Positions 1 through 21,118 of a DNA stretch of 21,118 nucleotides are shown piece after piece. The DNA is taken from the NCBI GenBank assembly GCA_050230475.1, contig JBFLGF010000014.1, positions 124,001 to 145,118 on the forward strand. The letters run 5' to 3'. Under the pieces are notes generated by a model. That model ran no database searches, was not told the origin of the DNA, and worked only from the letters and a program-made list of their open reading frames with translations. The DNA comes from Ancylonema sp. (taxonomy: Eukaryota). Within the stretch, counting starts at the first letter, position 1, and every line of letters starts with the position of its first letter. The translations under genes and the position numbers were made by a program.

Positions 1-3000
1 GGGAGCTGCAGCAGCTGGTGCAGGGGGGTGTGCCCATGGCGCTTCGTGGCGAGTTGTGGCAAGTGTTTGTGGGCACCAAGGGGAGGAGGGAGGAGGGGAA
101 GTACGATGGCTACTTGGACGAGGGGGGGGGGGAGACGGCATCCAATGGGACAGGCGGCAGTTTTGAGGACATCTATGCGCGAATCCGAGCCAAGGACGAG
201 GCGGAAGTGTTCACGTCTCAAATCGAAAAGGTGAGGGGGAGGAGGGGGGGACAGTGGGGGACAGGGGCATGCGGGCAGTGGGGGGCTCGTCGCTGGGGGC
301 AGCTCACAGAGAATCTGAGGGTCTGGGGTCCAGGATCTCCCGCGCACGTTCCCTGGTCACCCCGCCCTGGACGCCATCGGCCGCGACGCGCTCCGTCGGG
401 TCCTGATCGCGTACGCGCGTCGTACCCCGGAGGTGGGGTACTGCCAGGGGATGAACTTTCTGGCGGGCCTGCTGCTGCTGCTGATGCCGGAGGAGAACGC
501 GTTCTGGACTCTTTGCGGGCTCATGGAGGAGTACATGGAGGGGTACTACTCCGAGTCCATGATCGAGGCGCAGGTGGACCAGCTGTGCTTCGACGACCTC
601 GTCAGAGATAACTTCCCAAGGCTAGGTGGGAATACGCTTCGGCCCCTGCTCCCCTCCAAGGTCCTGTAGGGAGGCCCACCTAACGGAGCGGGGGGCGTTG
701 GGGTGGGTTGGGGGGTGCAGTTGGGCACCTGGACATGCTGGGTGTCCAGGTGACGTGGGTGAGCGGCCCCTGGTTCCTCTCCGTGTTCGTCAACGTCCTC
801 CCCTGGGAGTGCGTGCTGCGCGTATGGGACGTGCTGCTCTACGAGGGCAACCGCAGCCAGCTGTTCCGAACGGGGCTGGCGCTGCTGCAGCTGCACTCCG
901 CTGCACTGCTGGACTCGTATGACCCGGGGGACGCCATGGCGCTGCTGCAGTCCATTGCGGGGGCCACGTTCGACGGGAGCGAGCTCGTGTTTGCGGCCTG
1001 TCTCGGATACCCGGACGTGGACGAACTCATGCTGACCGTAAGGGGGGGGGGGGGCTGGGGGGGGCGGGGGGGATGGGGTTGGGCTGACGGGGTGGAGAGG
1101 TTTGTGTGCAGGAGCTGAGGGACAAACACCGCCCCACAGTGCTCAAGATGTTGCGCGATCGTCAGCAGTCTCTGGCTCGCTACCAGTCCGTGAAGATCAA
1201 CCGGATGACAGCAGAAGCGGTGCAGCAGCAGCAGCAGCAGCAGCAGGCTATGGGGGAGGGGGGGGGGGAGGTGACGCCCTCCCCCACCCCTCCCAAACCC
1301 AACGACGTGGCGGCGGCACTCCAAACCCATCGCTTGTCCCTCATGAAGCACCAGAGCATGAAGGGCGCTGACATCAGCAAGGTGCTGGAGGAGCTGCCAG
1401 CTGCCCCTCTGGTGGCGGATACCCGGGCTGGAGCGGGGTCCACCCTCAGGAGACTGCCCTCGGGGGGACTGGCGCTGAAGAGGTTGGGGATGGGCGGGGG
1501 GGGGGGGCTGGCGAGGGTTCAATCGCTGTCGGCTTCGCCCGAGGGTGCCGAGAAGAAGGCGCGCGTGGGGGAGGCCCTGTCCACCCACCGATCCTCCGTG
1601 GTGCGCCACCGCAGCATGCACTCGCCGCAGCTGGGGAAGGTGGCGGAGGAGAGCATGGAGGGGGTGGGGGGGGAGGGGAACCTGGGGTCGGGGTTGGGGT
1701 TGGGGGTGGGGCGGAAGCAGCCTGTGCTGTCGCGGCTGGTGAGTCTTTTTGGTGCCTCGGCCATTATGGTCATGGACGTTGGGGCGATGATGGAGGAGGA
1801 GGCGAGGGGGGACGGGGGGGAGGAGAAGGGGGAGGCGGAGGGTGGTTCGTCGGACGGTACCGTGCAGGAAGCGGAGGAGGGGGAGGACGGGGAGGAGCAC
1901 CTCCTGGCGCAGATCGAGTGGCTCAAGGAGCAGCTGGTGATGGTGCTGGAGGGTCAGGATGAGGCCCAGATGAGGGTGGAGGAGCTGCAGGCGGCGCTGG
2001 CCGAGGTTGCAGAGCGGCTGGAGGCTGCAGAGGAGGAGGACAAGGTGGCCCTGGTGAGGCGGCTGGAGAGGCTGGAGGGGGAGGTGGCGGCAGCCAAGGA
2101 GGAGGCGGCCCGGGGGGGGTCACGGGAGAGGGAGCAGGAGGCCATTGAGGCCGCCATCGCGCTCAAGGAGAAGGTGCTGGAGGAGGAGGTGGACGAACTG
2201 CTGACGGCGCTGGCGGATAAGGAGGAGAAGCTGAGGAAGGAGGTGGAGGACCTGAGGATCATTCTGAGGGAGAAGGGGAGGGAGGTGGAGCAGCAGTACA
2301 AGGTAGGGGGCGGGGGCTGGGGGGTGGGGGTTGGGGGGTTGGGGGGGCTGGGGGGTGGGGGTTGTAGTCTGTCCTGGGCCAGGTTGTGAGGGTGGCTGTG
2401 GTCGGGGTTCGGGTTCAGGTTATGGACCGCATGCAGATGGAGTTCAAGGCCACGGATGACTTGCGTCTGGCGGCAGAGCACCAATCGAGCACTCAGAAAC
2501 ACTTCATCGACCTGCTCATGGTCAGGGGACTGGGGACTGGGGACTGGGGAGAGGGGGGCACAAAAGGCACACTCAGGGGTTTGCGTTTCGGGTCTGTTGA
2601 CTTCGACTCTCGGGTTTCGGGTTTCGGGTTTCGGATTTCGGGTTTTGGGTTCTTCAGGAGAAGGCGCACGAGGCCGAGGTGAAGAGGAGCGATATGGAGA
2701 AGCGCGCCACGATGGCGGAGAGCATGGTGCAAGCGTTCATGGCGGCGGCGCCGGCAGAGGGGACCTATTCCACATTCAATGCCGCCACACCATCCACGTC
2801 AGGCACACCGCGACACAACTCATTCTCATTTGAGGGAAGGAAACAGGTGGGGAGGGGGGGGGGGAGGGTGGGAGGGGGGGAGGGGAGGAGGTGGGGATGG
2901 AGGGTACAGATGTTGTTTGGGCTGTTTTGTTGACAACGTGCGGCGGATTGTGTGGTTGGCGCAGATGATGGGGTTCAAGGACGAGGGGGTGGGCCGAGCA

Positions 3001-3276
3001 GCGATGGACAGCGGCTTGCCACGTGTACGAACACGTGGCGAGTACGGGGGCAGCCACGGGGGGGGCAACTCGGTTGGGGACTCCCCGCGGTCGCTGAGGA
3101 CGACGTCGTCGGGGGCGGGGTCGCCGGGGAGGGAGCTGTTGTCGCCATTGTCTCCGAATTCTTTGCGCGCCATGGTGGCGCACACGAGGAGCAGGGAGGA
3201 GCAGGAAGGAGGGGCACGGGGGCAGTTCCCATCCTCGCATTCGTCATCGTCTTCGACTCGGAACGAGTACACATGA
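1..3276 (+). CDS. 3' part of a spliced Rab GTPase-activating protein gene (TBC domain plus C-terminal coiled coil, plant Ypt/Rab-GAP type); 5' end lies outside the window. Exons: <1-230, 334-625, 721-1037, 1112-2302, 2419-2520, 2658-2846, 2965-3276
   Basis: Spliced translation gives the TBC signature motifs GVPMALRGELWQ, QIEK|DLPRTFPGHP (IxxDxxR arginine finger), VGYCQGMNF (glutamine finger), EENAFW, WFLSVF and LRVWDVLL. Six GT-AG introns (231-333, 626-720, 1038-1111, 2303-2418, 2521-2657, 2847-2964) keep the frame. The stop is TGA at 3274-3276. The long exon 1112-2302 may hide an extra intron. Confidence 0.9.
1223..1246 (+). repeat. (CAG)8 microsatellite encoding polyQ in the TBC protein
   Basis: Eight perfect CAG units, in frame in exon 4. 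Confidence 0.95.
2611..2651 (+). repeat. Telomere-like 7-bp tandem repeat (CGGGTTT) about 6 times, in intron 5
   Basis: cgggttt cgggttt cgggttt cggattt cgggttt tgggtt, directly before the acceptor CAG at 2655-2657. Confidence 0.8.
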
Positions 3277-3780
3277 GTTGTATAGTAATCGAAATTAGTA
3301 CATGGCGACTTGCCCGTAATTACTTTGGTCCGACCCCCCTCTCGGTGAGGCAATTGGTCCCAACAAACTCATCTCAAGACTGATTTATTTCCATAGACGT
3401 TTGTGCGGATCGTTGTTGACTCGTTTGGGGGTTCTCTTGCGAGAACGAGCAGTAGGATGAGGCTAAAGGGTCATGGTCGTTTGCGGCACTTGAAAGTTAG
3501 AAAGGTACGTCATGTGAGATGTACTAATTTTGGCCACGTGCAAACATCAGTTTTCGAAGTGGCTGGGTTAGGAGTGGACGCTAGCCTTAGTTGTGACGCT
3601 TATGATTTGATTGCATTCCCAATGAGACCAAGGGAATGGGGAGAAATTCTGTAGGAAACGTGACGCATGTAGGCCCTAGTTGGAAAGAAATAGCGACTTT
3701 TGATGTGCTCGTCCATGGTTGTTCGGAATACGCTTCTAATACCACATTAATAACCCAAATGAGTAAGAGACAACTTCCAA

Positions 3781-3820: not shown

Positions 3821-4333
3821 TCACGTCAAATAACTTGTCCTAGAGATGGTGATCGGCGCCCGGTGACATGTGACGGTGATAGAATAGATAATTGATACGG
3901 TTTGGAACTTGGAACCACCGAAAAGAGGTTCAATATCATATGGAGCTCTTGGTCCACATTTATTTATTTCCTTCTCCTGACGCAAATCGAAAATGCATTT
4001 TGATATTTTTCCTCTCCATGGTTGGCTCTAATCCGTCTAGGGATCTTTACCGGTTCTGGACCGATCCTGGTCCTTGACGCCTGTGCCAAAAAAAAAACCC
4101 GAAAACGAAAACAAAGAAAGTAAAGTCTTTTTCCACCGAAAAAGAGAGTATTGTAAGTACTGCATATCTGGTAGAAACTATACTTGTCGCAATTGCTTTG
4201 AATGTCATTCGCGTGGATGTAGAATGTTGTGTTAGAACTTTCTTCTGCCATCGATGCAAGAATAAAGTTCACTTCTTCTTAATCTCTTTGAATCAAGCAG
4301 ATCACGTCATTACAAACGATGACACAACAAAAN

Positions 4334-6681
4334 AGCACAAGCTCTACGCTAAACTGGAGAAGTGCGAGTTCCACGTGGACAACATCGCCTTCCTAGGCTA
4401 CATAATCTCACCATCCGGAGTGGACATGGACCCGGCCAAGGTGGCTTCCCTCCTCGACTGGCCAATTCCCCAGTCAGTCAAGGAGGTGCAGTCGTTACTA
4501 GGCTTTGCCAACTTCTACCGCAAGTTCATCAATGGCTACTCTACTCTCGCCTGCCCCCTAACCTCTCTGGCCCGGAAGGGCGCCAAGTTCCAGTGGACCA
4601 CCGAGGAGCAGGCAGCCTTTCAGTCCCTCAAGATTTCCTTCACCTCGGTCCTTATCCTGCAGCACTTCCATCCGAACTTACCTATCACCATCGAAGCACA
4701 TGCCTTCGACTTTGGGCTAGGTTGCGTCCTCTCCCAGACAAACGCGGCGGGCGAGCTCCACCCCATCGCTTACTACTCGAGGAAATTTTGTGATGCGGAG
4801 CTGAACTACCCAATCTACGACAAGGAGCTGCCAGCAATTGTTGCTGCTTTCCGCCAGTGACGGGTCTACCTGGAAGGTGCGGCGCACCTTATCATGGTCT
4901 ACACGGACCACAAGAACCTGGAGTAGTTTCAGGCTGCGCGAACCACCTCTAGGAGGCATGCACGGTGGGCCGAGACGCGAGCGGCCTACGATTTCTCTAT
5001 CGTTTACAGGAAGGGGTCCAGCAATGGCAAGCCGGACGCCCTCTCCCGCAAATCTGACTACATGCCGCCAGCCCAGCCCCCCCACCCTATCCTCCCCGAT
5101 GCAGCTCTTCTACCTATCCCCCCTCTACGAGCTGCACCTATCCTCCTGTCCCCGTCAGATCCTCTCCTACCTACCATCAAAGAGGCCTAGCTGGCGGACC
5201 CGGCTCTCCAAGCTATTGCGACGGACTTGCTCCAAAGACCTGCTCAGGAATCAAACCTGAGACCACCCTCAGGCAGGTCATCTGCTAACTACACACTCCG
5301 TGAGGGCCTACTCTACCGCAGCGGCCGTTTGGCAATTCCCCCTACCGCTGCTTCCCTCATCCTAGCCATTCTAAAACAGTATCACGATGCGCCCATGGCA
5401 GGCCACTTTGGGACTGCCCGGACGCACGCACTGCTGGCCCAGTATTTTCACTGGCCGGGTCTGTCTAAGGCGGTCGAAGACTACGTGCGCACATGCGACG
5501 TCTGCGCCCGGAACAAGCCGGTGCGCCACGCGCCATATGGCCTACTCTCCCCCCTCCCTATCCCATAGCAGCCTTGGTCTAATGTATCCCTCGACTGGGT
5601 CACGGACCTACCTCCTAGCGACTACCATGATGCTATTTTGGTGGTGGTGGACCGCCTCACCAAGCAAGCCCACTTCATCCCCACCACCAAGGCCATGGCG
5701 GCTCTTGAGGTCGCTGCAGTGTTTCTTGAGCAGGTGGTGCGCCTGCATGGGTTGCCCTCCAGCCTCATCAACGACCGCGATCCCATCTTCACCAGCCACT
5801 TTTGGCGTCGGCTGCTAGAGTTGTTGGGCATCCACGCCAACCGGTCGACTGCTTTCCATCCGCAGACGGATGGCCAGACGGAGTGCCTCAATTCGGTCTT
5901 GGAGTAGTACTTGCGCATTTACACCGACTACCAGCAGTCTGATTGGGCACGACTTCTGCCGATGGCAGAGTTTGCTTATAACAACTCCAAACATTCCGCC
6001 ACCACCCTCTCCCCGTTTTTCGCCAACTACGGGTTCCACCCGAAAATGTCGTTGCTCCCAGCCTCCCCCGATTCCCCCAACTCCGCAGCAGACGATTTCG
6101 CATTCAAACTGCGCTCCGCCAATCCCAGCGCGCCATGGAGACGTCCGCCAATCGGAAGCGTAGATCCGCCCCGAGTCTCATCCCAGGCCAAATGGTTTGG
6201 TTGTTACGCCGCCACGTCGGATCCACTCGTCTTTCGTCAAAATTGGATGTTCGTCGTCTGGGGCCCTTCCCTGTGATTGGCCAGATCGGGACCTCGGCAT
6301 ATCGCTTGGAGCTGCCGTCCTCCATCAAAATATTGGGACCTCGGCATATCGCTTGGAGCTGCCGTCTTCCATCAAAATCCACCCGGTTTCCCACGTCAGC
6401 CTCCTGACGTTCCCCGTAGGGAACGTGTTGGGATTCGTGTCGTGGCGCCTCCTCCTCCAATCATTGTGGACGGCGCACCAGAAAGTGAGGTGGCGGAGGT
6501 CCTCGAGTCCAAAATCTTGCGTGGCAAGCTGTTTTACCTGGTGAAGTGGGTCGGCTACGACGAATCGGAACGTTCTTGGGAGCCTGCGGAAAACATGACA
6601 CACGCTGCTGACGTGGTCGCCGACTATCATGCCGCGTTTCCCGATCGCCCGGCGCCTCCCTCATCGCGTCCCGCGCCTTGA
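4334..6681 (+). pseudogene. pol: Chromovirus pol pseudogene (RT end, RNase H, integrase, chromodomain)
   Basis: KLYAKLEKCEF..FLGYIIS; LGFANFYRKFI; RNase H AYYSRK..NYPIYDKEL and VYTDHKNL; integrase HDAPMAGHFG..CDVC, SLDWVTDLP, NDRDPIF, HPQTDGQTE; GPFPV (GPY/F motif); chromodomain FYLVKWVGYDESERSWEPAEN. Several in-frame stops and frameshifts. Confidence 0.92.
6285..6378 (+). repeat. 47-bp tandem duplication in the integrase C-terminus (frameshifting)
   Basis: 6285-6331 and 6332-6378 differ at only 2 positions, both C>T. Confidence 0.9.
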
Positions 6682-7125: not shown

Positions 7126-8709
7126 GGTACTATGTGCGGAGCCAATCTTACGTCGACCCGACCTCAAAAAAGACTTCTTTCTAGCAACAGACTAGAGCTA
7201 GCATGGCTTGGGAGAAGTCATAAGCGAGGTTGATGAAGAAAGGAGACGAGTACGCCGTAGCCTTTGCAAGTAGAAGTTGCAATGCCGTAGAGAAGAATTA
7301 CAGCAGCTTTCATGGGGAATGCCTCGCAGTCATCTCGACAGTTCAACAGTTTCGCCAATACTTGTTTGGACGAAAATTAACACTTATTACCGATCATGCA
7401 CCTCTTAAATGGATAATGACAACGACCAAACTTATCGGAAAATTGGCGCGTTGGGCATTACTACTTCAAGAATACAAATTTGAGGTAATTCATCGACCGT
7501 GTGTCACGCACACTAACGCGGACGGGTGCAGTCGCTGTCCCTTACCCGACACAGGCAACACGTCCCACGAAATTGACACACTCGGGGATCCCACACCCAC
7601 GTTTACAACATTACCAATTACTTGTGTTAGCCCATCTTACTTCATCAGCTTCAATCACAACACGGTTCAATCGGAAGAAGCCACAGTGGATATTTGGGAG
7701 GACAATGACACACTAACCTTACTTCGATCACATCGCTATGGTACTCATCTCACACCGTTTCAACGTGATCGAATTTACAGGCGGGCGCTTAAATATCGAT
7801 TATTGGAAGACAAACTCTACAAAATCCCTATCGAAGGACACCTCAAATTGGTGCACAAACCAAACGCTCGGGTACCATAGATTTCTACACTGCATACTCG
7901 GTACGGGAATTTTGGAATCAAACGGATCCTCACGGCATTACAAAAGAACTATTGGTGGTTCAATATGGGAGATCAAAGTGGCCGCGATAATTCGCGCTTG
8001 TGTACCATGCTCCCGTTCCAAAACCAACTCCAATGACGGAAGAACGCAACTTCAACCCCTTCCCATTCGAGGGTTATTTTACAAAATGGGTCGAGTTAAT
8101 TCCACTCCCCGATAGGAGCTCCGCCACAACAGCCAATGCGTACCTTGATAATGTGCTAGCACGTTTTGGTGCTTCAGCGGAGACTCTTACAGACCAAGGA
8201 CCAGAATTCATGGGCGAATTCCAAACCCTACAGGCTCAACACAACATTACACACCGCATGGCGTCCCGAGAACACCCTCAATCGGATGACTTGGCCGAAA
8301 GGATGGTTCAAACCATGAAATCAGGTTTGCGAAAAACATTGTTAACGCAACATCGTGATGATTGGGATCTATTCCTTCCATACGTGGCGATGGGATATCG
8401 CATGACTTTACAATCATGATTGGGTTACTCTCCTTACTACTTGTTGTACGAACGACAACCAATCTTCCAAGCACAAATTCAACACCAAGAACACGGTCCG
8501 CTCCCAGCTTCGGACAACGAAATCTAAAAATCCATCGTCAACCGGGGCAAATTGTTCCAAGAAGTTATGCCACTCGCAATGCGCAATCTGGCCATAGCCC
8601 AACAGCGCGATCGACACCAATACTTCAGAGTCCACGGCCAAGGATGGGATCGTCCAATGGCAACATTTCATGTCGGACAATTCGTATGGGTCAAACGACA
8701 AACAAAAGG
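7126..8709 (+). pseudogene. pol: Ty3/gypsy pol fragment (RT-RNase H connection, RNase H, integrase), same family as the minus-strand methyltransferase element; cut at both ends by other elements
   Basis: EPILRRPD, AFASRSCN, ITDHAPLKWIMTTTKL, NADGCSR, LQPLPIRGLF, LTDQGPEF, HPQSDDLAERMVQ, WVKRQTKG, all closely matching motifs at 11382-13050 on the minus strand. A deletion near 8080 removes the first integrase Asp (WGVDFAGP in the other copy). Confidence 0.9.
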
Positions 8710-10277
8710 TGACGTGTTGTTTGAAGTCGGCCGCCCGGAATGGTGCTCTTCATACCTTTACTTCTTTCTTAACTGAAGTTATCTATTTTGATGTCCTCAT
8801 TACTTCTTCTTTACTAAGTTCTGAATGTTGATCATCTCATATAGTCACAATCTTGTATCGATACATGTTGGTAATCTCTCATAAAGTCACAATGTGGTAT
8901 TGTGCTGCTCTCACTAAGTAATATTGCAGATTGAGTCTCTGCTAAGATATCAATATTATATATATCACACGTCTCAGCGGTCTGGTGTGGTGAAATTCAC
9001 TACTTAACGCCGAGGGCGAGCTAATAGATTAGTACAAAAGTTTGTGAAAATACTATAAAGCAACCAAGATAGTCTGGTGCAGACTATCAAGGTTAACAGC
9101 CGTAAGAGTTACTTTCGGTGCGAAAGGAAAGTATCGACGGCGCGTCGATAAAAGATGCTGGCTCAGAAAGAGCGTCAGCAGACAGGTGTAAACAACAAAT
9201 GCTGGCTCGGAGCGAGCGACAACAAACACACACACACAAATGAAATTGCCGGTTCGGAGCGAACGCGGGAAAATCGACAGATATTTAACACACACACACG
9301 CTTGCAGGCTCAGAGAGAGCGTCAGCGAATCGATGTAAGGAATTACAGTCGATTAACAAGCTCGCTCAGAAAGAGCGTCAGCAACAGATTCACATGAATT
9401 AGATCAAATACAAACATACACACACAGATTGCAAAGAATGATTTGCAATCTTACCGGCTGGCTGACGGATGTTAGGCTGAGTCGGAAGACGAGCACGTTG
9501 CGAAGTCGCGTAAGCGAAGGGATGCAATATTCACAAAATTGCAAAGGATTCAGATAACATAGAAGATTGTTGGGAGAGATTTCTTAACAGCGCAATCTAA
9601 CAGCGGAAGCTGGCAGATCTGAAACTACAATTTTTTCTTTTATCACAAAGTTGTTGCGCGGTGCTAACCGGCAGAGTTAACTAGAGTTAAACTGTCGAAG
9701 ATAGCGACAGGCTGGCTTCTATAACATTACAATTAATCACGGCGCGAGATATTTCTCTAGTTCTACGGCTGGATTTAATCGCCGGGATTATCGACAAGTC
9801 GAAAGGGACTTGTGATTTTATCAAAATCGACACGCACCTATTTGTTGAAGACTGCTGGATTCAAGACTTCGGAAAATACGCCACGCGTTATTTTCGAGTC
9901 GTACAAATTTCGTACTTCACTATTTTTATTGTAAGGTACTAGTTCTCACAAAAGTACTAAATCTAGAAAGTCGTTATATTGAATACTCTCGTTATAGCGG
10001 AGTATTAATCTAGAGGAGTTTCTGAACAATCTAGAGGGGTTTCGCCTTAGCGATCTCTAGCGTCATGACAGCTGACGGTGTTGTTTGAAGTCGGCCGCCC
10101 GGAATGGTGTTCTTCATACTTTGACTTCTCTCTGAACTAAAGTTCTCTCTTTTGATGTCCTCATTACTTCTTCTTCTCTAAGTTCTAAAAGTTGATCATC
10201 TCATATAGTCACAATCTTGTATCGATACATGTTGGTAATCTCTCATAAAGTCACAATGTGGTATTGTGCTGCTCTCA
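8710..10277 (-). repeat. Composite 3' LTR region of the DNMT-gypsy element (about 1.57 kb), with a roughly 205-bp direct repeat at both ends (8710-8913 and 10073-10277)
   Basis: Minus strand starts TGAGAGC directly after the PPT and ends ACGTCA. The two 205-bp units are highly similar. 8710-9823 is homologous to 13472-14527 in inverted orientation. No coding capacity. Exact LTR boundary is ambiguous. Confidence 0.7.
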
Positions 10278-10290
10278 CTCCCCCCCCCCC
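10278..10290 (-). promoter_or_regulatory. Polypurine tract (plus-strand primer) of the minus-strand gypsy
   Basis: Minus strand reads GGGGGGGGGGGAG immediately followed by TGAGAGC. Confidence 0.75.
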
Positions 10291-10321: not shown

Positions 10322-10384
10322 TCAGGAGCAGCGTTCGCCTTGGTGGTCAGGACAGAACCATGCACATTCATGTATGACCTGAAC
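10322..10384 (-). pseudogene. C-terminal remnant of pol resembling the end of a PHD finger
   Basis: Minus-strand VQVIHECAWFCPDHQGERCS* resembles the PHD ending (V/I)PEGxWFCPxC/H and stops about 30 bp before the PPT. Confidence 0.55.
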
Positions 10385-11381
10385 CCCTCGCTACCGTGCC
10401 TACGGTGTTTTGTGTCGGAACCCGGTCCCTAGGTCCCGTCTTCGGCTCGTCTGTGGCGACGTGACCTCATCTACAACCGTCAATGCCCTAGCTTGAATCC
10501 TGGCCATCTCGGGAACATTCTCGAAACTGGCGACTCGGTGATTCCCATTTCGAAGCTCGACTGGTTTTTCCGGAAAATTTATACATCGCCGCCGTCCATT
10601 GCGGTTCATCCGACGGGACATCCGCGCTCTACAGATTTTATATCTGCCACCGGGGCATTCGCGATCCCTCCACCATCCAATTTCGTCGACGTGGCGCCAT
10701 CGTATTCTCGCCCTCTTTCTGACACATTCCGATCGGACGGCCGCTGCCGCTGCTCCGCGATCTTCCAGTTTCCGATCGTCCACGTCAAGCCGTCCATCTT
10801 TCGGTCCTTGCTCCCAGTTTCCGATTTCACGGGAGCCCGTTTTTTTCCCTACGACCCTGGGCTCATTATTTTCTCCGCCTTTGAGCCCCGCCATCAGTTC
10901 TCCCTGGCCAAGAGCCCGACCTATTTCGGCTCATTTTTCCAGCCCGGAGACCAGGAGTTTGCCCTTCTCCTTTACGCGGCACGCCGCGCCTTTGACGAGG
11001 GGATACTGTTAGGACTCCCTCTATTGTCACTAGGGTTCCCCTAGAGTGTGCCCTACCCTTAGCTAGCTCTTAGCTTGTAATCCCGATTGCCTAGTTGTTA
11101 AGCCCTAATTTGGTTATTACACTTCATCAACAGTTAGTCCATTGTTAGGCCCTAACTTACATTTGTCCTTATATCGAATTAGGTTCAGTTTTCCCTTATA
11201 ACGAGTTCAGTTCCGACCCTAGTTTCATATTTATACCCATCAGGAATGCTCATTCAGCATCCTGATCAATTCATGTACTCTTTCATATCATACTTGCACT
11301 TTCAACCCTTCCAGTGTGTATTTGTGTTTGTGACTGAGTGCTTTCCTATAAGCTAGAGCCGCCGCTACTGCGACTCTAACA
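10385..11381 (+). mobile_element. 3' end of a second chromovirus-related LTR element: unrecognised internal segment, PPT and LTR (11008-11381), inserted in the DNMT-gypsy integrase tail
   Basis: PPT GAGGGGGA then TAC, then LTR TGTTAG...CTAACA (374 bp). Shares GTCACTAGGG, TTTGTCCTTATATCGA, CTTATAACGAGTTC and AGGAATGC with the LTR at 6693-7125. Left boundary is approximate. Confidence 0.75.
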
Positions 11382-13471
11382 AAGTGTGCCTTTGGTTTGA
11401 CGTTTCACATAAACATATTGATGTTTTAGGAGACGAGGACGCGGTCGTGCCCATGTACCACTGTGTACCCGAAAGTATTGATGCCTGTCTCGTTGTTGTG
11501 CAATGGCAAGGTTGCGCATTGCGAGTGGCATGACTTCCTCAAAAAAAAAAATGCGTTCCAGAATGAATTTTGGTAATTATTTGAGTGCCTCAGGTAAGGG
11601 GTCATGTTCAGCTGCCTGTATTTGTGCCTGGAAGATAGGGTGTTTGCCATACATCAAATAGTATGGTGAATACCCGGTAGAGGCCTGTTTTGTCATGCGG
11701 TACCCCATGGCGACAGAAGGTAGGTAAATGTCCCAATCCGTGCAATGTTCTTTTACGAGGATTTTCCTTAAAGATAGTTACATCGTTTGAACCATGCGTT
11801 TTGCTAACCCATCATATTGTGGGTGTTCCCGGGCTGCAGTACGATGTGTAACTCGATGTCCGGCAAGTAAGTCGGTGAATGCCCCTTCAAATTCCGCGCC
11901 TTGGTCAGTGATGATTTCTCCAAGAGCTCCAAAACGAGAAAGGACATGAGTGAGTAAAGCATGTGCTGCTGATTTTGAAGATTTGTCGGGTAAGGCGATA
12001 AGTTCAACCCATTTGGTGAAATTTTCAATGCATATCATAACGTATTGGTTTTTACGTGTACATTTTGGCATAGGTCCAGCGAAGTCCACTCCCCAACGGT
12101 AGAAGAGTCCCCGAATTGGTAATGGTTGTAGTTGGGTGCGTCCATCAACAAAGTTTGTTTTTGCTCGAGAACATGTGCTGGACATTCTTTGATGACTTGA
12201 ATGACATGATCACCCATCCCATGCCACCCGTAATCTTGTTGTAAAGCGTGGAGCACGCGTTTTACCCCAAAATGACCGTATCGTGTGTGCATGTATTAAT
12301 CAGAGGGATTCATTCTGGTGGTGGTGGAACGATTTTCATGTGCCCAGAGGTAGGGATTTTGTAAACATATCTCCCCATCCATCTATATTTGAGAGCCCGT
12401 CGGTATGTACGCTCTTTGTTGTGGTGTCAAGTCTGGTAGGTGTATGAGTTTTGAGAAGTGTCATTGTGGCATTATTCCCAAATCCACTTTGACATCTTCT
12501 GGTGGTGGTGTACCTTGGTGGAAACCCAGAAAGTACGATGGTGGATTTTGACCCGTGGGTGAGGTTTACATGTAGTAGCAAGGTGTTTTCTCCCCTAATG
12601 TTTCAATCTCACGGTTATCAGTTACTGTCTCTGGTAATGGACAACGACTGCACCCGTCGGCATTGGAGCTTGCAACACCGGGGCGATGGATTACTTCAAA
12701 TTCATATTCGTGGAGTAGGAGAGCCCAGCGCGCAAGTTTGCCGGTGAGTTTGGTTGTTGTCATGATCCATTTAAGGGGTGCATGATCGGTAATGAGGGTA
12801 AATGGTTTACCAAACAGAAATTCACGAAAATGTTGCACCGCCCAAATGACAGCAAGACACTCCCTGTGGAAGTTGCTCTAGTTCCGTTCCGCATTGTTAC
12901 AGTTGCGACTAGCAAATGCGACTGCATATTCGGTACCATCATCATCTGTTTGACTCAAAACGGCACCTAAACCATGTGCACTCAGTAGGTGGCTAGTAAG
13001 TGTGGTTTATTGGTATCTGGTCTGCGGAGCACAGGCTCTGAACAGAATGCTTGTTTGAGTGTGATAAAGGTTGTTTCTTGAGTCTCATCCCAATCCCATT
13101 TGACATCCCCTTTTAGAAGTCCGTTGAGTGGGGAAGCACTGTTGGATAAATGTGGAACGAACTTGCGGTAATAGGAAACCACCTTAGAATAGCACGAAGT
13201 TGATGAATATCCTTAGGTGTTGGCATATCCTTAATAGCTCTGGTTTTCTCATCTTGTGGTGCAATACCTTTCCCATAGATCTTATGGCCGAGAAAGTCTA
13301 TTTCATCCGCAAAGAATAATGACATTTCACTTTGACGAAGGCGATGAAAGACTTCGAAGGTGTTGTACGAAAGTATTGTCATTGATGACATTTCATACTT
13401 GAACTGACTTTCGAAGTACGATGTGAAGACTTGTCGAAGGTGTCGAAGTCTAGAATGGTCCTCGAAAGTAT
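11382..13471 (-). pseudogene. pol: DNMT-gypsy pol, distal part: RT C-terminus, RNase H, integrase
   Basis: EIDFLGHKI, SYYRKFVP, EPVLRRPD, ITDHAPLKWIM, zinc-binding HTRYGHFG..C, core WGVDFAGP / ITDQGAEF / GLAKRMVQ (third acidic residue E>K). Ends YVKRQTKGTL at the chromovirus LTR. Confidence 0.9.
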
Positions 13472-14527
13472 TGTTAAAATCACAAGTCCCTTTCGACTTG
13501 TCAATAATGGCGATTAAATCACTATAAGAATATCTCGCGCCGTTTTCATCGCGAGATTAATTGTAATGTTCGAAGCCAGCCTGTCGCTATCTTCGACAAT
13601 TCAACTCTAGTTAATTCGGTTAGCACCGCGACTTTGTGACAAAAGACAAATTATATTTTCAGATCTGCCAACTTCCGCTGTCAGATTGCGCTGAAGAATC
13701 CCTTCCAACAGTCTTTTGTGTTATTTGTGCAATTCTGTGAATATTGATCCCTTCGCTTACGCGATACGTGCTCGTCTTCCGACTCAACTGACATCCGTCA
13801 GCCAGCCGGTAATTCAAATATTCTTTGCAATCTGTGTGTTGTATTTTACTGATTCATCTGAATCTGACGCCTTTCTGAGCTAGCTTCTTAATCGACTGTA
13901 ATTTATTACATCGATTCGCTGACGCTCTCGCAGCCAGCAAGCGTGAGTGTGTGTGTGTGAAGTATCTGCCGATTTGTCTGCGTTCGCTCCGAACCGGCAA
14001 TTTCATTTGTGTGTGTGTGTTTGCTGTCGCTCGCTCCGAGCCAGCATTTGTTGTTAACACTTGTTTGCTGACGCTCTTTCTGAGCCATCATCTTTTATCG
14101 ACGCGCCGTCGATACTTTGCTTTCGAACCGAAAGTAACTCTTACGGTTGTTAACCTTGATAGTCTGCACCAGACTATCTTGTTTGCTATAGTATTTTCAC
14201 AAACTTTTGTACTATAAACCATATGTTAGCTTGCCCTTAGCGTTAAGTAGTGAATTTCACCAGACCGCTGAGACGTGTGATAGATATAATATTGATATCT
14301 CGTAGAGACTCAATTTGCAATACTACTTAGTGAGAGCAGCCGGACCACCAAGTCCACCTGAGACCCTTCGATCACCTACAAACATCATCGATACCAACCC
14401 AGTCGACATCATCGCTACTCTCTACCACGAGCATTACCACATGCATCATTCTGAGAAACATCCGGGAACAAAGAGGACAAAGTATGAAAAATATCAGTTT
14501 AGGCGGCCGACTCCAAACAGCACGTCA
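13472..14527 (+). mobile_element. Solo-LTR-like copy of the 8710-9823 sequence, inserted just after the YIDD motif of RT
   Basis: Inverted homolog of 8710-9823 with TG...CA ends. Flanked by GTAT at 13468-13471 and 14528-14531 (GTATT if the TSD is 5 bp). Removing it restores SNT|FEDH after YIDDI. Confidence 0.85.
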
Positions 14528-15150
14528 GTATTGCTTCAGTTGCTGATGTCATCAATGTAGCATCGCGAGTTGCGGAATCCTGCCAAAATTCGGTCCAGTG
14601 TGCGTTGAAAGAATGGTGGTGCATTCTTTAGTCCATATGGTACGACATTCCATTCATAAAGTTGACGTTCAGCTCCCCAAAATGCATTCTTGCATTTGTC
14701 TCTTTCAGAGATAGATATCCGGTGGTATCCCTCTCGTAAATCCAATTCGGTAAATATTTTTGCTTCTTTCATGTCCTAAAAGATGTCCTCTATTCGTGAA
14801 ATCTTACTTGTCTTGTTGGGTGTGGTTGAGGATAGGACGATAATCACCACACTGGCGAAAGTCGGTTGGTTGTCCATTCTCGTCCTTCTTTCGTACCACG
14901 ACGGTTGCCGAGGCGTAATTATTACTGTCACTTTTGCGAATCATGCCGAGTTCTAGGAGTTTTTGACAGTTTTCCCGAACAAAGCTCCATTCGGTGTCCG
15001 AAAGACGATGGGAGTTTTGAAAGATTGGTTGAGTTGTTTGCAAAGGAATTTCCATAAGAGTATTGCTGGATGGAAGTAACTCTTCCAGAGAAAAGTTTTC
15101 CTCCAGAAGGTCAATAACGTGAAGTTTTCGTTCCTCCGTAAGATTGTTGC
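14528..15150 (-). pseudogene. pol: Reverse transcriptase, N-terminal and core part
   Basis: LLELGMIRKS..YASATVVVRKKD..RQCGDYR; IFTELDLREGYHRI; YEWNVVPYGLKNAPPFFQR; CYIDDI. Confidence 0.93.
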
Positions 15151-15479
15151 CAATTTCCCATGTAATGGGTTTTACCTCAGTTTTTGGTGGTGAATCTGGG
15201 TTGGATGGAATCATGTTGTCATCGGTGACAATTTCCGATTGGTAATCTGTTTCACTCAATAGTGCTTGAGTGATAGGAATTGCATCTTGAGCGAGATGGC
15301 GTTGCTCAGTTGAAGTGTGATGCAGGTGATTCCTATTATTGTAAAATTCATTGGTCTCGGAGTCGTAATGCAGTGTGTGGTATAATGGAGCAATAGAGTA
15401 GTTGCCCCCCCCCCTTTCTTTGGTTGGCAAGGTGGGGTGTGTACCCTATGCGAGGTTGTAAGATAGAAGTGCATGAGAA

Positions 15480-16455
15480 TGCCTCCCAACCATTTAGCCA
15501 TGTTGCGATCCATCGTGCGTCCCAGCAGTGCTTTCCGAGTATTCTTTGAAATGCCTGGTGCACATGTATCTCCATTGTCAAAACCCATGAGTCTCTCATG
15601 TTCCCAGACATTCGCTTCCTCCCAGTCATGTTTCTCCGTGTTGTAAAGCATTCCAGGGCCTGGTTGATTGTACCCTTGAAATTTAAATTGGTAACTGCCT
15701 CGGTATGAAACAAGTGTCGGTAATGCACGACGTAGTGCGCCAGTTTTGTTAACTGGAGTGAACGGTGGTTCATCATCTTTAAGCACCTTGTTAGGTCGAT
15801 GATGTGGTTCAAGAATGGTTGACAAAGGTGGCAATTCCGGTGTGTCACGAATAGCCAGTTCCAATACATGTGGTGATATCTAGTTTGTCCAGATGCATCG
15901 AACATGGTGGGCTGTGCTACCGAAACTCCATGCGTCGGCAATTGCTAGAAAGCCCAAAAAGGACTTGATGATTGTAGTTGTATCTCGAATTTTCTTCACC
16001 ACATCTCCAAATGGATATGTATTTTCTAAAGCAAATACTGGTGGCTATTTTTGGACTCTGATGAGATGGTTGATGGCTCGAATGAGGTCAAAGAAGTATG
16101 GAAATCGTCGATCATAGTCGCCTTTGCCTTGTCCGGCTTTGCTGACCATCTGACATTCCCACCCAGCGAAGATGAAATCAATAGGTCCTCGTTGTAGGAT
16201 CAGTTCATTTAGATCGTCGTTTGATATTTTTGAAAAATCATGAGAAAGTCGAGTGTCGAAACCTTTGATTGCACTGGTTGGCAATTGTCTTGGGTATCGA
16301 ACTTGAAGTTTGGGTAATGTGGCACGAGTAATGTCACGTGCGTCTTGGTCAATGTCAGTGTGTGTATATGTATCAATGTTGTTTCCAGCTTCAAGGTGCA
16401 TGATAGCGCCAGTCCAACTCATGCCACCTAATGGTTTCCAAATGTGTAAACCATC
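15480..16455 (-). pseudogene. DNMT3-like C5 cytosine DNA methyltransferase domain inside the gypsy polyprotein
   Basis: One frame read through two stops (16045-16047, 15880-15882). Motif I-like LHIWKPLGGM; motif II TYTHTDID; motif IV GPIDFIFAGWECQMVSKAG (Cys at 16153-16155); YFFDLIRAI; motif VI FALENT; motif VIII DAWSFGSTAHHVRCIWTN; motif IX WEHERLMGF; motif X TRKALLGRTM. These parallel DNMT3 GPFDLVIGGSPC / LFENV / AHRARYFWGN / EMERVFGF / RQRLLGRSW. Confidence 0.88.
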
Positions 16456-17049
16456 TTGCATCGCCTTGGGTTGTAAGCGTGCTGTATAAGATGGATCAAT
16501 TGGTACAGCATCACGAATCGGTATACCTTTCTATGCGTTCCATTGTGGTAATGGCTGGTTTGGTATTTTGTCAATGGCCTTGCGTAAATATTGTGCGCTG
16601 TTGATACGCAAGGTTGTAAGTCTGTTGACTGCATGGTGCTCGTTTACTTGTGCCATTGTTCTGGCTGCCGCATTGAGTTGTGGTCGATGCGCTTGACGAA
16701 TGTCTGTATGTTTGGTTGTAGCAAGGTAAACCATGGTATTGGTTTCCCATTCTTGCATCTGAGGTTGGTACTCATTGTCGATGGGTCCATCTGGAAAATG
16801 TTGTGGTTCGTGGTATACACCTTCTTCCATGATACGAAACTCAAATTCTGTCAGAATGTCGGCTTCTTCTGTTGAATGTAACAAATCCTCTTTGGAATTT
16901 GCATAAATGTATCAGCAGACGTGTAAGTAACACCTGCATCCATGTATTGACAATGTACCGATGCCGCGTGTGGCAAGGTGAATTTGACTGTAATTGAGGC
17001 ACGGTGTGTACCCTGTTTTTTCCAGTCGACGCGGAAATGAAAGTGTTGA

Positions 17050-17370
17050 CTCCATGGATCTGTAATGCCTCCTACTATTGGTCCCAGGAAAGTACTGCCC
17101 AACAAAACGTCGTATTTTTCGGACGGTGTCAAATGAAGTTTAACGTTAACCGAAGTTTTGTTTCTACCATGTCCAATGTTGATGGTGTATGCTTTCTTGG
17201 TGGTCCCCAAAGATTGTTGGTATTTGCCTTCTGAAGTTAAGTATTCTTCTCCAGGATCAAGGTCTTGTGGTGTAAGCTTGAGTTGTTTGGCAAATTTGGT
17301 ACCAATGGTCACGTTCTCAGCACTTGAATCGAAAATTGGTAGTGAAGGTGTTTCTCCACCAATAGTGAGT
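17050..17370 (-). pseudogene. Retroviral-type aspartic protease
   Basis: PIFDSSAENVTIG (D-S-G-A-like, Asp at 17328-17330) and C-terminal YDVLLG. Confidence 0.8.
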
Positions 17371-17975
17371 ATGGATTGACAGTTGTCAGCGGTTGGTATA
17401 TGCCAATTGGTTATCAATTTGGCGTTGCAAGGGATCACCGGTGGTTTGGTGTATTGTGGTCCCATTACATAGAGTGCCATTGGTGGTTGTGGCATCTCTG
17501 CTTGTCGAGGGTAGTGGTGGTATGTCACCCTGAGGTGAGTCAAGTAACGTCGTTGTGAACAGTTGGTCATTGTATGTCCTGTTTGTCCACAAAAAACAAC
17601 ATCGTAATTCTTTTTCAATGACATCGTATGGTTCTTCAAATTCATGTCTGTTTGGGGCCTGATGTGGTGCAAACTCGAGTGGTATCGAGGTACATGAAGG
17701 TGAAAGGTCTGGGTGGTTATCAATGGAATATCCCAGGTTATGTTCGATCTTTGTGACTGTTGTAGTCGTTCGAAGCTTTATCATGAGTTTTTCCAGCACT
17801 CGTTCAAGTTGTTCATCAAAAATGTGTACATATCCTGCAAAAATGTCCGACGGAGGTGCCATAACTGTGTAAGTTGGTGGATCAACTTCTCCAGTCTTAG
17901 GCGGCGCGTATCGTGTGAAAGCCAATGTAGCTTTCCATACCTCCTCCGCTTGAAGCAACTGAATGGTGAGATGAC
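17371..17975 (-). pseudogene. gag: gag C-terminal region with a CCHC zinc knuckle (17559-17601)
   Basis: Removing one T from the T-run gives CCFCGQTGHTMTNC (CX2CX4HX4C) and joins the upstream ORF in frame with the protease. Confidence 0.7.
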
Positions 17976-18038
17976 TGTTAGGATTTAAAGTATCGGATAG
18001 GCATACCTTGTTTGGCCTAATCCGGACTTAGCCTAAAA
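17976..18038 (+). repeat. Start of a copia LTR (same family as 19214-19703), inserted in the gypsy gag and cut by the N
   Basis: TGTTAGGATTTAAAGTATCGGATAGG...GCCTAAAA matches 19214 onward with one mismatch. Confidence 0.9.
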
Positions 18039-18689
18039 NATTGCTAAAATCGATATAACGACAAAAGTTCACAACCCCTAAAAACTAACATGTTGATGCA
18101 AGTTTATGCAAATCAAAGTACCCCAAGCGCTTCAATTTCCAAGATTTGAGAGTAAAAACATTGAAGAATCATCAAACGCGGGTGATTTTATGCAATCTTA
18201 CCTACGTAATTCAGGGTTGCACAATGCACTATTCTATCAATAATCTAGGGTCACAATAAGTGGTGGGGCCCACCCGCCAGACATCTTCGGGTGGGTTGAA
18301 AGCTGTCCCGCCCTCCGCCTTCGACCTGCCAGGAGTCCTGGGGGTCCTGGCCTTGGACCCCCACCCTTCCTCCACCCGCCTTTAATCCGCCCCTCCCAGG
18401 GTCCACCCGCAGACCCGCCAAAAAGTGGCGGGTGTCATGTAAAATTGACGGTTTTACCCAACCATGACAATGACCATGTGGTCCAGGACCCAATTATATC
18501 TTTATTTACTTGGATGGTTTATTTTGAGACACGATCGCACCGTGGTCCACTAACCAAGCAAAAGGCATCTCGACAAATAGAAGAAATATTAAAGGTTGGA
18601 ATTCGGTATTGTAGGCATAAAGTCGTGAAAATATTGAATGGGGTAGATTTACGTGTATGATGTACTAGGGTATTACTTCATTTTGGTTA

Positions 18690-18758
18690 ATCACCAAACA
18701 CACTCTTCGGCTAAATCACCAAACATACTCGTCTTCACAAATTCATACTCGTCTTCAC
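18690..18758. repeat. Short degenerate tandem repeat (AATCACCAAACA / CATACTCGTCTTCAC units)
   Basis: Read directly from the sequence. Confidence 0.65.
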
Positions 18759-19703
18759 ATTTTTTTTAATTTTTTTTGTTGTATGCTCAAGTCGTAAAAA
18801 AACCCGTCTAAGTATCCTCGCCGGTTGCGAATATTCAAAGTTTATATAGGTACCAAAATCGGTATAATATTTATAAGGACCGGACTATATATGGTGTTTA
18901 TCATATTTTGAAATTGAGGTCGGCTAGTGACCACCGGGTGCGCGTCTTGTCGGCACGTGCCACTTGCATGAAGATGTGACAATCGTTGTCTTTTTTTTTC
19001 TCATGTAGGAAATTTTGACTTATACATTCGTCCACCTTACGCCTAGTTTTGTGGGTGATATTCCATATTCCATATTGCATATTGCATTATGGTAAAATTC
19101 ACTAACAATCTACTTCCGGCCCCAATATAGCCGATACCGCATACCCGTGTACTCCTTCAAAAAAAAAATCGAATATCGAATACGTTCCCCATCTCTAGAG
19201 AACGTGTAGGTTGTGTTAGGATTTGAAGTATCGGATAGGCATACCTTGTTTGGCCTAATCCGGACTTAGCCTAAAATGCAGTTTAGCATATTAGGTACCA
19301 AGTCCTGTTGTCTAGTTAAGGAACCGGGAATACCACACCCGGGCATCCAACCGTCTTGGCACACCCGGCGGTGTGCCATAATTGTTGTCGTTACAATCTA
19401 GGTGTAGTTTGTCAGAATGTACCTAGGGCGGTGGCACGCTAGTATTGGCTAGAATCTAGTGTGTCAGTTCAGTCCGGCGATAGTGCCGATGTACTTGTGT
19501 GTAGCGGTCTTATGATTGGGCGGCGGTCAATAGTTCCGACCGCCGACCGTTAGACTTGAGATTCGCAATGTACGATCGTCGGGGTATATCAACCCGACGA
19601 TCACACTTTTATGACTATTCCAAGAGACAAAATTGCCATACGGATCCATCGTGCGATACGTATCATTGTTGCGGATAGTACCATCTCATCACAAAATTTT
19701 ACA

Positions 19704-19716
19704 GGTTATGGGCCCA
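19704..19716 (+). promoter_or_regulatory. Primer-binding site of the copia/Ty5/Osser (hemivirus) type, complementary to the internal anticodon region of initiator tRNA-Met
   Basis: GGTTATGGGCCCA directly after the LTR-terminal ACA. Confidence 0.85.
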
Positions 19717-19944
19717 CAGGCTGTCTACGAAGAGACTCTGTGCGGGTCGACATCTAAAGGTTCAACGTGACTGCTGCGCTACAAACGGTAAATTGTGCCG
19801 CTTGTTAAGGGCTAATTATTGGGTTCGGAAATTGTTGCTGTGTGGGCAAGTAATTTTGAATTACGTTGCCGGGAAATTTACCTGTGGAAACTGTGAGCTC
19901 TGTTTTGCTGCGAGTTGTTTTTGTTGTGAGCTAACACCGCAGGC

Positions 19945-21050
19945 ATGTCAGACAAGAGCAACATCCCCTAGTTTACTGGAGCTTCTTACAGAAGTTGGGC
20001 ATTCAAATGCCAGTATGGGTTGGTGGAGAAGAAGCTGCACCGCATCGTCATGGAGTTCGACGGGCTGGCGAGAGAACCTCGGCCAACGCCTGCCGAACCG
20101 CTGACACAGGCAGCACTCGACGCCCTACCTAATAGAGCTGCTAGGGTGATTGCTGTCGCAAATCGTCAGACCATGATTGATGCTAGGGCACCAAAAATTG
20201 CTAATTGGGTTGAACGTGACCTTGAGGCTCGAGCGTATATTGTAAAATACCTCGGCCCATCCGAACAAACACATGTCAGGAAATGTAGATATGCGCATGA
20301 GATGTGGGATACTTTGGAGAGTCATTATGTAAGGCAGGGAGAGATTGAAATCGCCAATGCTACTGCAAAGCTTTCAGCAATTGTCATGTCGGAAGCTTAG
20401 ACGTTGGATGTCTATGTTAAGCGACTGCAGGACATCTTTGAAGATCTTGATAGCATGGGTCGAGAGATGACTACATCCGAGCAAGCGACGGCCTTCCTCA
20501 ACTCCCTCAACACCTACTACTCTGCCAACGTCAGCTCCTTCAACTCTGGTCAAGGACTGCGCCTGCGCTCTACAACATCAACGACATCGTGTCTTCGATG
20601 ATTCAGAACGACGTCCGAGCTGACATCAGACGGAAGAGAGGAGAGCCAGCTGGGGCTGACGCACGAATCAACTACACTACGGATTCGGTGCAAGGCCCGG
20701 TGGTAGGCACGATGGGGGTGGTGGTAGTGGCGTACGAGACCTTCGCGGAATCCAGTGCCACGGCTGCCAGCAGTACGGGCATCTGCGAGAGAGCTGTCTT
20801 GCGGGAATCCAGCAGCAAGGGCCGAAGAAGTGCCACAATTGCGGACGTGCCGGACACCTAAAGTACGAGTGTCGAGACCCACCAAGACAACAAGGTGGAG
20901 GTCAGCAGTATGGCGGCCAGCAGCACTATGGCGGCCAGCAGAACGGTGGCGCGCAGCCTTATGGCGCGAGGAAGGAAGCATAATGGGGATGCCAAGTGCA
21001 ATTGGTGCAAGAAGGACGGACACACCGAGGATATAAGCTTTTGAGTGATT
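19945..21050 (+). pseudogene. gag: Copia gag pseudogene with up to three CCHC knuckles
   Basis: MSDKSNIP*FTGASYRSWAFK; AHEMWDTLESHY; YVKRLQDIFEDL..FLNSL. Knuckles CHGCQQYGHLRESC (20756-20797), CHNCGRAGHLKYEC (20831-20872) and degenerate CNWCKKDGHTEDIS (20997-21038). Stops at 19969 and 20398, plus frameshifts. Confidence 0.85.
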
Positions 21051-21118
21051 AGACGTGCCGGAATAATTAGGTGGGCGACAAAACGAACCGTACGCAAAAG
21101 GATCTCTATCACTGATGA

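Follow-up and report, generated by a model that had tools for sequence, protein, structure and literature searches.

A DNMT3-type methyltransferase domain between protease and reverse transcriptase in a Ty3/gypsy relic of Ancylonema, and its possible role

What does a retrotransposon gain from carrying its own DNA methyltransferase (MTase)? Retrotransposons with a DNMT, KnitGypsy-Dnmt3 of Klebsormidium nitens among them, were published in 2018 (de Mendoza et al., PMC5890265), and the text of that paper, in which the Gypsy example gave no activity, leaves this question unsettled. The question is raised again by the window, the whole 21,118-nt stretch of Ancylonema sp. DNA analysed here. In it, a preliminary description made from the letters had placed a DNMT3-like cytosine methyltransferase between the protease (PR) and the reverse transcriptase (RT) of a Ty3/gypsy element. 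Diverged homologues with naturally open frames are now available in number, and the hosts Klebsormidium, Closterium and Haematococcus can be cultured.

The window copy and its methyltransferase domain

The PHD-end motif and a module of polypurine tract (PPT) and repeats B-A-B both lie on the minus strand, and the main element therefore most likely spans 17975-8710, with two interruptions, one a nested LTR piece and the other an A/B fragment in reverse orientation. Its features are as follows, in coding order.

17559..17975, minus: remnant of the gag C terminus, its CCHC knuckle frameshifted (zf-CCHC E 0.095, weak)
17052..17369, minus: aspartic protease, DSSA motif at 17336-17319 (PF13975 E 2e-5)
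16480..17051, minus: protease-MTase linker, with a frameshift near 16900 and a stop at 16533-16531
15475..16479, minus: DNMT3-type C5 cytosine methyltransferase domain, predicted
15446..15448, minus: TAG directly past the last MTase helix, candidate programmed (read-through) stop
15405..15421, minus: 17-nt purine tract with 10 G at its end in the MTase-RT linker, candidate internal polypurine tract
14545..15028, minus: 5' part of the reverse transcriptase up to YIDD (14559-14548), with a frameshift near 14800
13471..14527, plus: the family's own A/B terminal repeat, a reversed truncated piece inserted in RT
12638..13352, minus: 3' part of RT, connection and RNase H (PF17917 E 2e-19)
11382..12483, minus: zinc-binding part and core of the integrase (IN), cut at 11382 (rve E 9e-10)
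10390..11381, plus: 3' portion of a different LTR element, nested (PPT and LTR at 11007-11381), left boundary approximate
10322..10375, minus: end of a PHD finger (W-x-C-x-x-H at 10360-10343), then the ORF stop
10280..10290, minus: polypurine tract with 11 G immediately 5' of repeat B1, in the same place in loci L007, L033, L051 and L078
10073..10277, minus: repeat B1, 205 nt (192/205 identical to B2), then a 2-nt spacer
8914..10070, minus: repeat A2, 1157 nt, beginning TGTCATG
8710..8913, minus: repeat B2, with CA at its end, the 3' end of the element

The placement given in the preliminary description holds: the protease (17369-17052) is upstream and RT (15028-14545) downstream of the methyltransferase, with 2.0 kb between the two. 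The linker ahead of the domain is open in the close relative P0003, and the purine tract behind it (15421-15405) is the sole such tract within 17975-11383. The reversed A/B piece is identical to 8710-10070 in 791/942 columns, and some contigs of public runs join across it. The nested LTR piece takes the place of most of the integrase tail and the PHD finger. Assignment of the PHD remnant rests on its position and on the rarity of its end motif (2 occurrences in the 42,232 codon positions of the window), its profile score being not significant. Further downstream, the B1/A2 junction decamer is that of the related loci L008, L009 and L012; except for this junction motif, no DNA likeness was found between the A/B repeats of the window and the repeats of 80 metagenome loci. 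We infer that the 3' repeat module belongs to the methyltransferase copy, across the nested insertion.

At the opposite end, the element breaks off at the start of a copia LTR (17976) and an N gap (18039), beyond which neither the 5' portion of gag nor the 5' repeat survives. No 5' copy of repeat A was found in 18091-19213 (score 25, shuffles up to 29), and no integrase tail or PHD finger beyond 18040; no tRNA genes were found in the window. A 37-nt unit at 18433-18469 (TGTCATG...CATGACA) has inverted ends that correspond to the first letters of repeat A.

The surroundings are rich in other elements. The 3' end of the main element (8710) adjoins the integrase of another such copy, which lies on the plus strand as an RNase H-integrase fragment (7130-8710) with 67-76% identity to the main one. 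Different insertions have truncated the two integrases at almost the same codon, in a KRQTKG stretch. A decayed chromovirus-type gypsy element (4334-6680, plus) comes after an N gap at 4333 and comprises RNase H, integrase, chromodomain and PPT, with an LTR from about 6693. A copia element with gag (PF14223) and zinc knuckles occupies 19214-21118 (plus). At 17976-18038, where the main-element gag is cut and next to the N gap at 18039, the initial 63 nt of its LTR are found again. At 1-3300 (plus) lies a host RabGAP-TBC gene (Pfam) of 65% GC, which is intron-dense; its introns are short and G-rich, and it has a coiled-coil tail. Its CpG observed/expected ratio of 0.65 is below that of the neighbouring elements. 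The nested decayed retroelements beyond this gene have a GC content of 41-58%.

C5-methyltransferase motifs I-X are found on the minus strand at 16479-15475, in one frame with two TAG stops inside.

16437-16420, minus: motif I
16368-16348, minus: motif II
16167-16150, minus: motif IV, including the catalytic Cys
16032-16018, minus: motif VI
15912-15883, minus: motif VIII
15603-15580, minus: motif IX
15528-15508, minus: motif X
16047-16045 and 15882-15880, minus: in-domain TAG stops

These coordinates agree with the earlier account of motifs I, II, IV, VI, VIII, IX and X standing in order in a single frame with two stops. That account had also remarked that the list of open reading frames splits the domain over two ORFs and loses motifs VI and VIII; indeed, the 54 codons between the two stops, which hold both motifs, lie outside the stop-to-stop ORFs 16045-16530 and 15256-15879.

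For the domain analysis, the minus-strand frame 16530-15445 was translated with X at each TAG. The two checks proposed in the preliminary description, a profile search and a structure prediction on the stop-corrected peptide, both came out in favour of the domain. Specifically, the peptide scores 27.6 bits with PF00145, above the cut-off of 22, and its AlphaFold model (74-row alignment) has a mean pLDDT of 93.9 and a pTM of 0.92. All 33 Foldseek matches listed for this model (ranks 1-50) are DNMT3A/B/C, the best with E 9e-17 and TM 0.79 by target. Profile ranking gives the same order of likeness, with DNMT3A (E 6e-26) ahead of DRM (1e-16), HhaI (5e-10) and DNMT2 (2e-4). The motif order is non-permuted and the domain is intronless. 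By predicted fold and profile rank, the domain is a DNMT3-type C5 cytosine methyltransferase, as had been suggested.

The window copy itself is a dead relic: it carries frameshifts, several stops and motif substitutions. Lesions beyond the in-domain stops include the frameshifts near 16900, 15475 and 14800 and the stops at 16533-16531 and 15448-15446. The catalytic Cys and the motif VI Glu are retained, while motifs I, VIII and IX each have one conserved residue substituted; these residues are intact in close kin.

A family-wide domain in two polyprotein slots

The closest kin among ENA proteins are 74-87% identical and open across the linker and both in-domain stops. Two relatives encode Gag-PR-MTase-RT-RNase H-IN-PHD in a single ORF: P0018, of 2300 aa, and P0084, of 2568 aa. 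Among the 80 metagenome loci, PR upstream and RT downstream of the methyltransferase are both found in 48, RT only in 19, PR only in 9 and neither in 4, so that one or both neighbours are present in 76/80. Contigs of four public DNA runs cover 30/30 bins of 11000-18300. In run X1 the cover is 2,600-3,700 over the methyltransferase and 1,700-3,600 over RT, RNase H and integrase, a depth that is not a copy number. A run labelled glacier metagenome holds 185 contigs with diverged family copies, mostly less than 95% alike. Family copies lacking the domain had been named as the test of its membership; none of the 15 joints listed (there are 82 further) skips it.

Constraint on the domain is apparent in an alignment of 70 relatives. 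The catalytic Cys is present in 68/68 filled rows, the motif VI Glu in 70/70, and the two motif VIII Args in 68/70 and 69/70. The motif IV residue before the Cys is Glu in 37 and Pro in 27 of 68 rows, so that WEC is often found rather than PC. In two groups of 11 and 19 related loci, both outside the window's family, dN/dS is 0.49 and 0.40 for the methyltransferase, compared with 0.52 and 0.40 for RT; between families it is about 0.2, with most dS values saturated.

The domain occupies one of two places in the polyprotein. In 69 long relatives it lies before RT in 14 and between RNase H and integrase in 53, with 2 unplaced, and 45 of these 69 proteins end in a PHD finger. Named members of the pre-RT slot are K. 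nitens GAQ93235 and Closterium NIES-68, -54 and -53; those of the post-RNase H slot are Haematococcus lacustris and Hariotina reticulata. Streptophytes thus appear in one slot and chlorophytes in the other, a pattern that rests on few named rows. The sister group with the order RT-RNase H-MTase-IN-PHD comprises P0043, P0072, P0053 and about 145 further proteins; Pfam overlooks the methyltransferase in many members of this slot, e.g. P0043. In the papers searched we found no account of the post-RNase H sister group with its chlorophyte members, which appears new against that literature.

Trees of the methyltransferase and of RT/RNase H were compared on 139 rows for which near-whole MTase, RT and RNase H were required, including 35 of the 80 loci. 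The slot splits both trees into 49 and 90 rows, with support of 98 and 100. Of 39 strongly supported methyltransferase splits, the RT/RNase H tree repeats 33; all 4 conflicts lie in the post-RNase H slot. Pairwise distances in the two trees correlate at 0.91 in the pre-RT slot, a value inflated by near-copies. An IQ-TREE analysis of 56 rows, which kept only 24 of the post-RNase H rows and dropped 8 near-duplicates, supports the slot branch at 100/94; the window, K. nitens and Closterium fall on one side of this unrooted tree, with the base of that side unresolved. P0084 is the sister of the window copy in both the methyltransferase and the RT/RNase H trees. The window methyltransferase groups with P0084 and P0119 and, in these unrooted trees, is not sister to that of K. 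nitens (29% identity).

At the level of sequence, these results show a family-wide domain inherited jointly with RT, under constraint similar to that on RT in related loci. The modest single-sequence Pfam score (27.6 bits) could have fitted a one-off nested fragment of a host DNMT3, or a chance match to the motifs. Such an origin is refuted by the intronless frame shared with linker and RT in open relatives, by the 76/80 loci and by the congruent trees, and its probability is negligible; the preliminary description, which took the domain to be part of the element, is borne out on this point. Its view of the class as rare is not: the methyltransferase profile collects 275 clusters (at 50% identity) at E<1e-30 and 884 at E<1e-10, with named members in Klebsormidium, Closterium, Haematococcus and Hariotina. 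The Gypsy-DNMT3 kind is far wider than one alga, and the same enzyme is found in two polyprotein slots.

The stop after the methyltransferase

The TAG at 15448-15446 is followed by 213 open codons into RT in the same frame. The P0002 cluster has no stop within the domain, yet ends at the same codon as this TAG; because the 10 P0002 members may be one locus, only two family copies are known to share the stop. Ends 18-25 residues past motif X are also found in P0119 (of the sister sub-clade), in K. nitens GAQ93235 and in others. More generally, among the 187 of 203 rows that reach motif X and could be scored, a stop 15-30 residues past motif X is present in 10/37 pre-RT proteins vs 2/150 post-RNase H proteins (Fisher p 1.5e-6, or 1e-4 counting 7 lineages), an excess that may owe something to contig ends and to errors in gene models.

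Within the L001/L008 sub-lineage, 17/19 loci have their stop further along the linker, at one fixed site, and it is always TAG or TAA followed by CAR-YY. The tobamovirus read-through motif UAG-CAR-YYA (PMC3542737) is matched exactly in L001 (TAG-CAG-TTA), L002 and L055 and nearly, with CAA-CCC or CAA-CCT, in 14 more loci. The stop of L001 is at 5083-5085, in a locus otherwise open over 1369 and 1047 codons. In L001, L002, L055 and the L008 group, TAG-CAG-TTA or TAR-CAA-CC(C/T) stands between otherwise open ORFs. Past the stop, RT continues in the same frame both in the window and in L001/L008. In-frame stops are known in Tca2, SIRE1 and MuLV (PMC2194720). The fixed TAR-CAR-YY context and the stop enrichment point to a putative control of RT by read-through. 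A fixed leaky-stop context after the methyltransferase would predict a high enzyme content in particles.

The window stop reads UAG-G and lacks the CARYYA motif. A MuLV-like pseudoknot behind it was considered and rejected, the 119 nt downstream folding with z -0.6 relative to shuffles. Methyltransferase and RT are joined in one ORF in 15 pre-RT proteins (P0084, P0018 and 13 others), and the linker is open and in frame in 12/65 loci. The 2018 authors, too, place the DNMT in one ORF with RT (peer-review file of PMC5890265).

Whether the TAG in the window's family is programmed is a matter of balance, and we put it slightly above even. The competing explanation, which we regard as quite conceivable though not favoured, is that the TAG is a decay mutation of a non-autonomous sub-family whose active elements have one ORF, as P0084 does. 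This sister element has no stop at that place, every stop in the window frame is TAG, as decay predicts, and no significant structure follows the stop. It is harder to reconcile with P0002, stop-free over the domain and ending at the same codon, and with the ends of P0119, GAQ93235 and others shortly past motif X. Decay would bear on the read-through step only; the enzyme would keep the role proposed below, at Pol-like amounts.

The stop after the methyltransferase and the leaky-stop context were not found in the papers searched and appear new in that respect. That search returned no paper treating Gypsy-DNMT3 elements of mosses, Closterium or Haematococcus, the post-RNase H slot, or read-through in such elements; subscription journals lay mostly outside it, and the figures and main supplement of the 2018 paper may hold some of this.

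Possible role and comparison with known systems

We consider it reasonably probable that this enzyme, a DNMT3-type methyltransferase now seen in a dead copy of a multi-copy Ty3/gypsy element, methylates in active copies the element's own new cDNA. The methyltransferase would be translated with Gag and protease and so would enter the particle. The stop behind it would be passed by occasional read-through in several lineages, probably including the window's family; because it is passed only occasionally, Gag-PR-MTase would be in excess over RT-RNase H-IN wherever a leaky stop follows. The protease would trim the methyltransferase domain, which would then methylate cytosines of double-stranded cDNA inside the particle, or of flanking DNA at integration. 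The methylated new copy would arrive pre-marked, and the PHD finger may steer integration by chromatin state.

Neither CpG nor CHG depletion gives a clear self-methylation footprint. The CpG observed/expected ratio of the window copy (0.72-0.82) is not clearly below that of its neighbours (0.83-1.24); in the second, plus-strand copy it is 1.07. The lack of clear CpG depletion would also suit a domain kept for binding, as a holder of cDNA or RNA, a decoy or a dominant-negative partner of host DNMT3/DRM, as would the inactivity of the KnitGypsy-Dnmt3 domain in yeast (PMC5890265), a result that its authors call inconclusive, and the frequent WEC in place of PC in motif IV. Binding would hardly need a Cys, a Glu and two Args that are near-invariant across relatives of about 30% identity, and we regard this explanation as improbable. 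Somewhat less improbable, though still unlikely, is action in trans once the enzyme is released. It would then methylate host chromatin at the insertion site or near it, or silence the element's own promoter in repeat A, thereby limiting copy number and harm to the host. Chromatin contact would be built in through the PHD finger that ends 45 of the 69 long relatives, a leaky stop would supply free enzyme through the excess of Gag-PR-MTase, and self-limitation is among the options that the text of the 2018 paper lists (PMC5890265). The ordinary, plant-like methylome of K. nitens (PMC5890265) argues against it, as does the position of the enzyme in the polyprotein, which favours action in cis during reverse transcription; the latter argument is made by the 2018 authors in the peer-review file of PMC5890265.

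Methylation of the element's own cDNA could also be set in a longer history, which we offer tentatively and hold doubtful as a whole. One old and widespread Gypsy-DNMT3 radiation in the green lineage would go back to a single DNMT3 capture, with pre-RT (streptophyte) and post-RNase H (chlorophyte) slots; several pre-RT lineages, the window's family included, would have a leaky stop giving a capsid-like enzyme load, and cDNA would be methylated before integration.

The window element belongs to the KnitGypsy-Dnmt3 kind, with the same slot and domain order and a PPT-B-A-B 3' end. The connection with the elements reported from Klebsormidium (de Mendoza et al.), drawn in the preliminary description, is upheld by the same slot in GAQ93235 and by the B-A-B end. 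That description had not noted the B-A-B end, the PHD tail or the recurring stop past the methyltransferase. GAQ93235, which encodes CCHC-PR-MTase and lies on the same side of the methyltransferase tree as the window, is presumably one of the elements of the 2018 paper. As in KnitGypsy-Dnmt3, the window has the gypsy domain set PR-RT-RNase H-IN with a DDE integrase, and an intronless, non-permuted DNMT3-related domain in the polyprotein region. Purifying selection, seen here in related loci outside the window's family, and A-ORF-B-A-B repeats are also shared, KnitGypsy-Dnmt3 having DIRS-like repeats in the order A-coding-B-A-B (PMC5890265, legend of Fig. 4c). The window has the 3' PPT-B-A-B; the full layout is found in 6/40 loci of at least 9 kb and part of it in others. 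Loci with the full layout have a G-rich PPT before B1 and an A beginning TGTCAT, and in L007, L033, L051 and L078 the B1/A2 junction reads CA-nn-TG, like a two-LTR circle junction. A G tract of at least 6 G lies between methyltransferase and RT in 39/65 related loci (L003-L080, many of them near-copies), compared with 0/65 in each of two control windows, and may serve the split-repeat design as an internal primer of plus-strand synthesis. The window differs from KnitGypsy-Dnmt3 in its 29% identity, its non-sister place in the tree, its dead copy and a repeat A of about 1.15 kb, and the text on KnitGypsy-Dnmt3 (PMC5890265) mentions no stop after the methyltransferase, PHD finger or internal G tract. 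Elsewhere, 'streptophytes (Gypsy-DNMT3)' are named as a separate acquisition (bioRxiv 10.64898/2026.05.21.726589), and the kind is also named in PMC12344493.

SymbioDIRS-Dnmt3, whose domains methylate CG de novo in yeast (PMC5890265), has in common with the window kind a DNMT3-type domain in Pol and split direct repeats; it is described as an independent dinoflagellate capture and has a tyrosine recombinase, whereas the window kind has a DDE integrase. EpiLTRs of Cymbomonas and Euglena (bioRxiv 10.64898/2026.05.21.726589) are likewise described as Gypsy-like LTR elements that combine a cytosine DNMT with a chromatin-reading domain. Their DNMT is a sister of DNMT4 and is accompanied by a Dam adenine methyltransferase and a chromodomain, whereas the window kind has a DNMT3-like enzyme and a PHD finger instead; Dam and chromodomain are absent from P0018 and P0084.

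For the stop, the closest parallels are MuLV gag-pol, Tca2, SIRE1 pol-env and the tobamoviruses, in which an in-frame UAG is reported between an abundant upstream product and a rarer downstream one, as would hold here. The present case, in which read-through is putative and read from sequence, differs in that the stop precedes neither member of the protease-methyltransferase pair; because it lies after both, protease and methyltransferase would both be on the abundant side.
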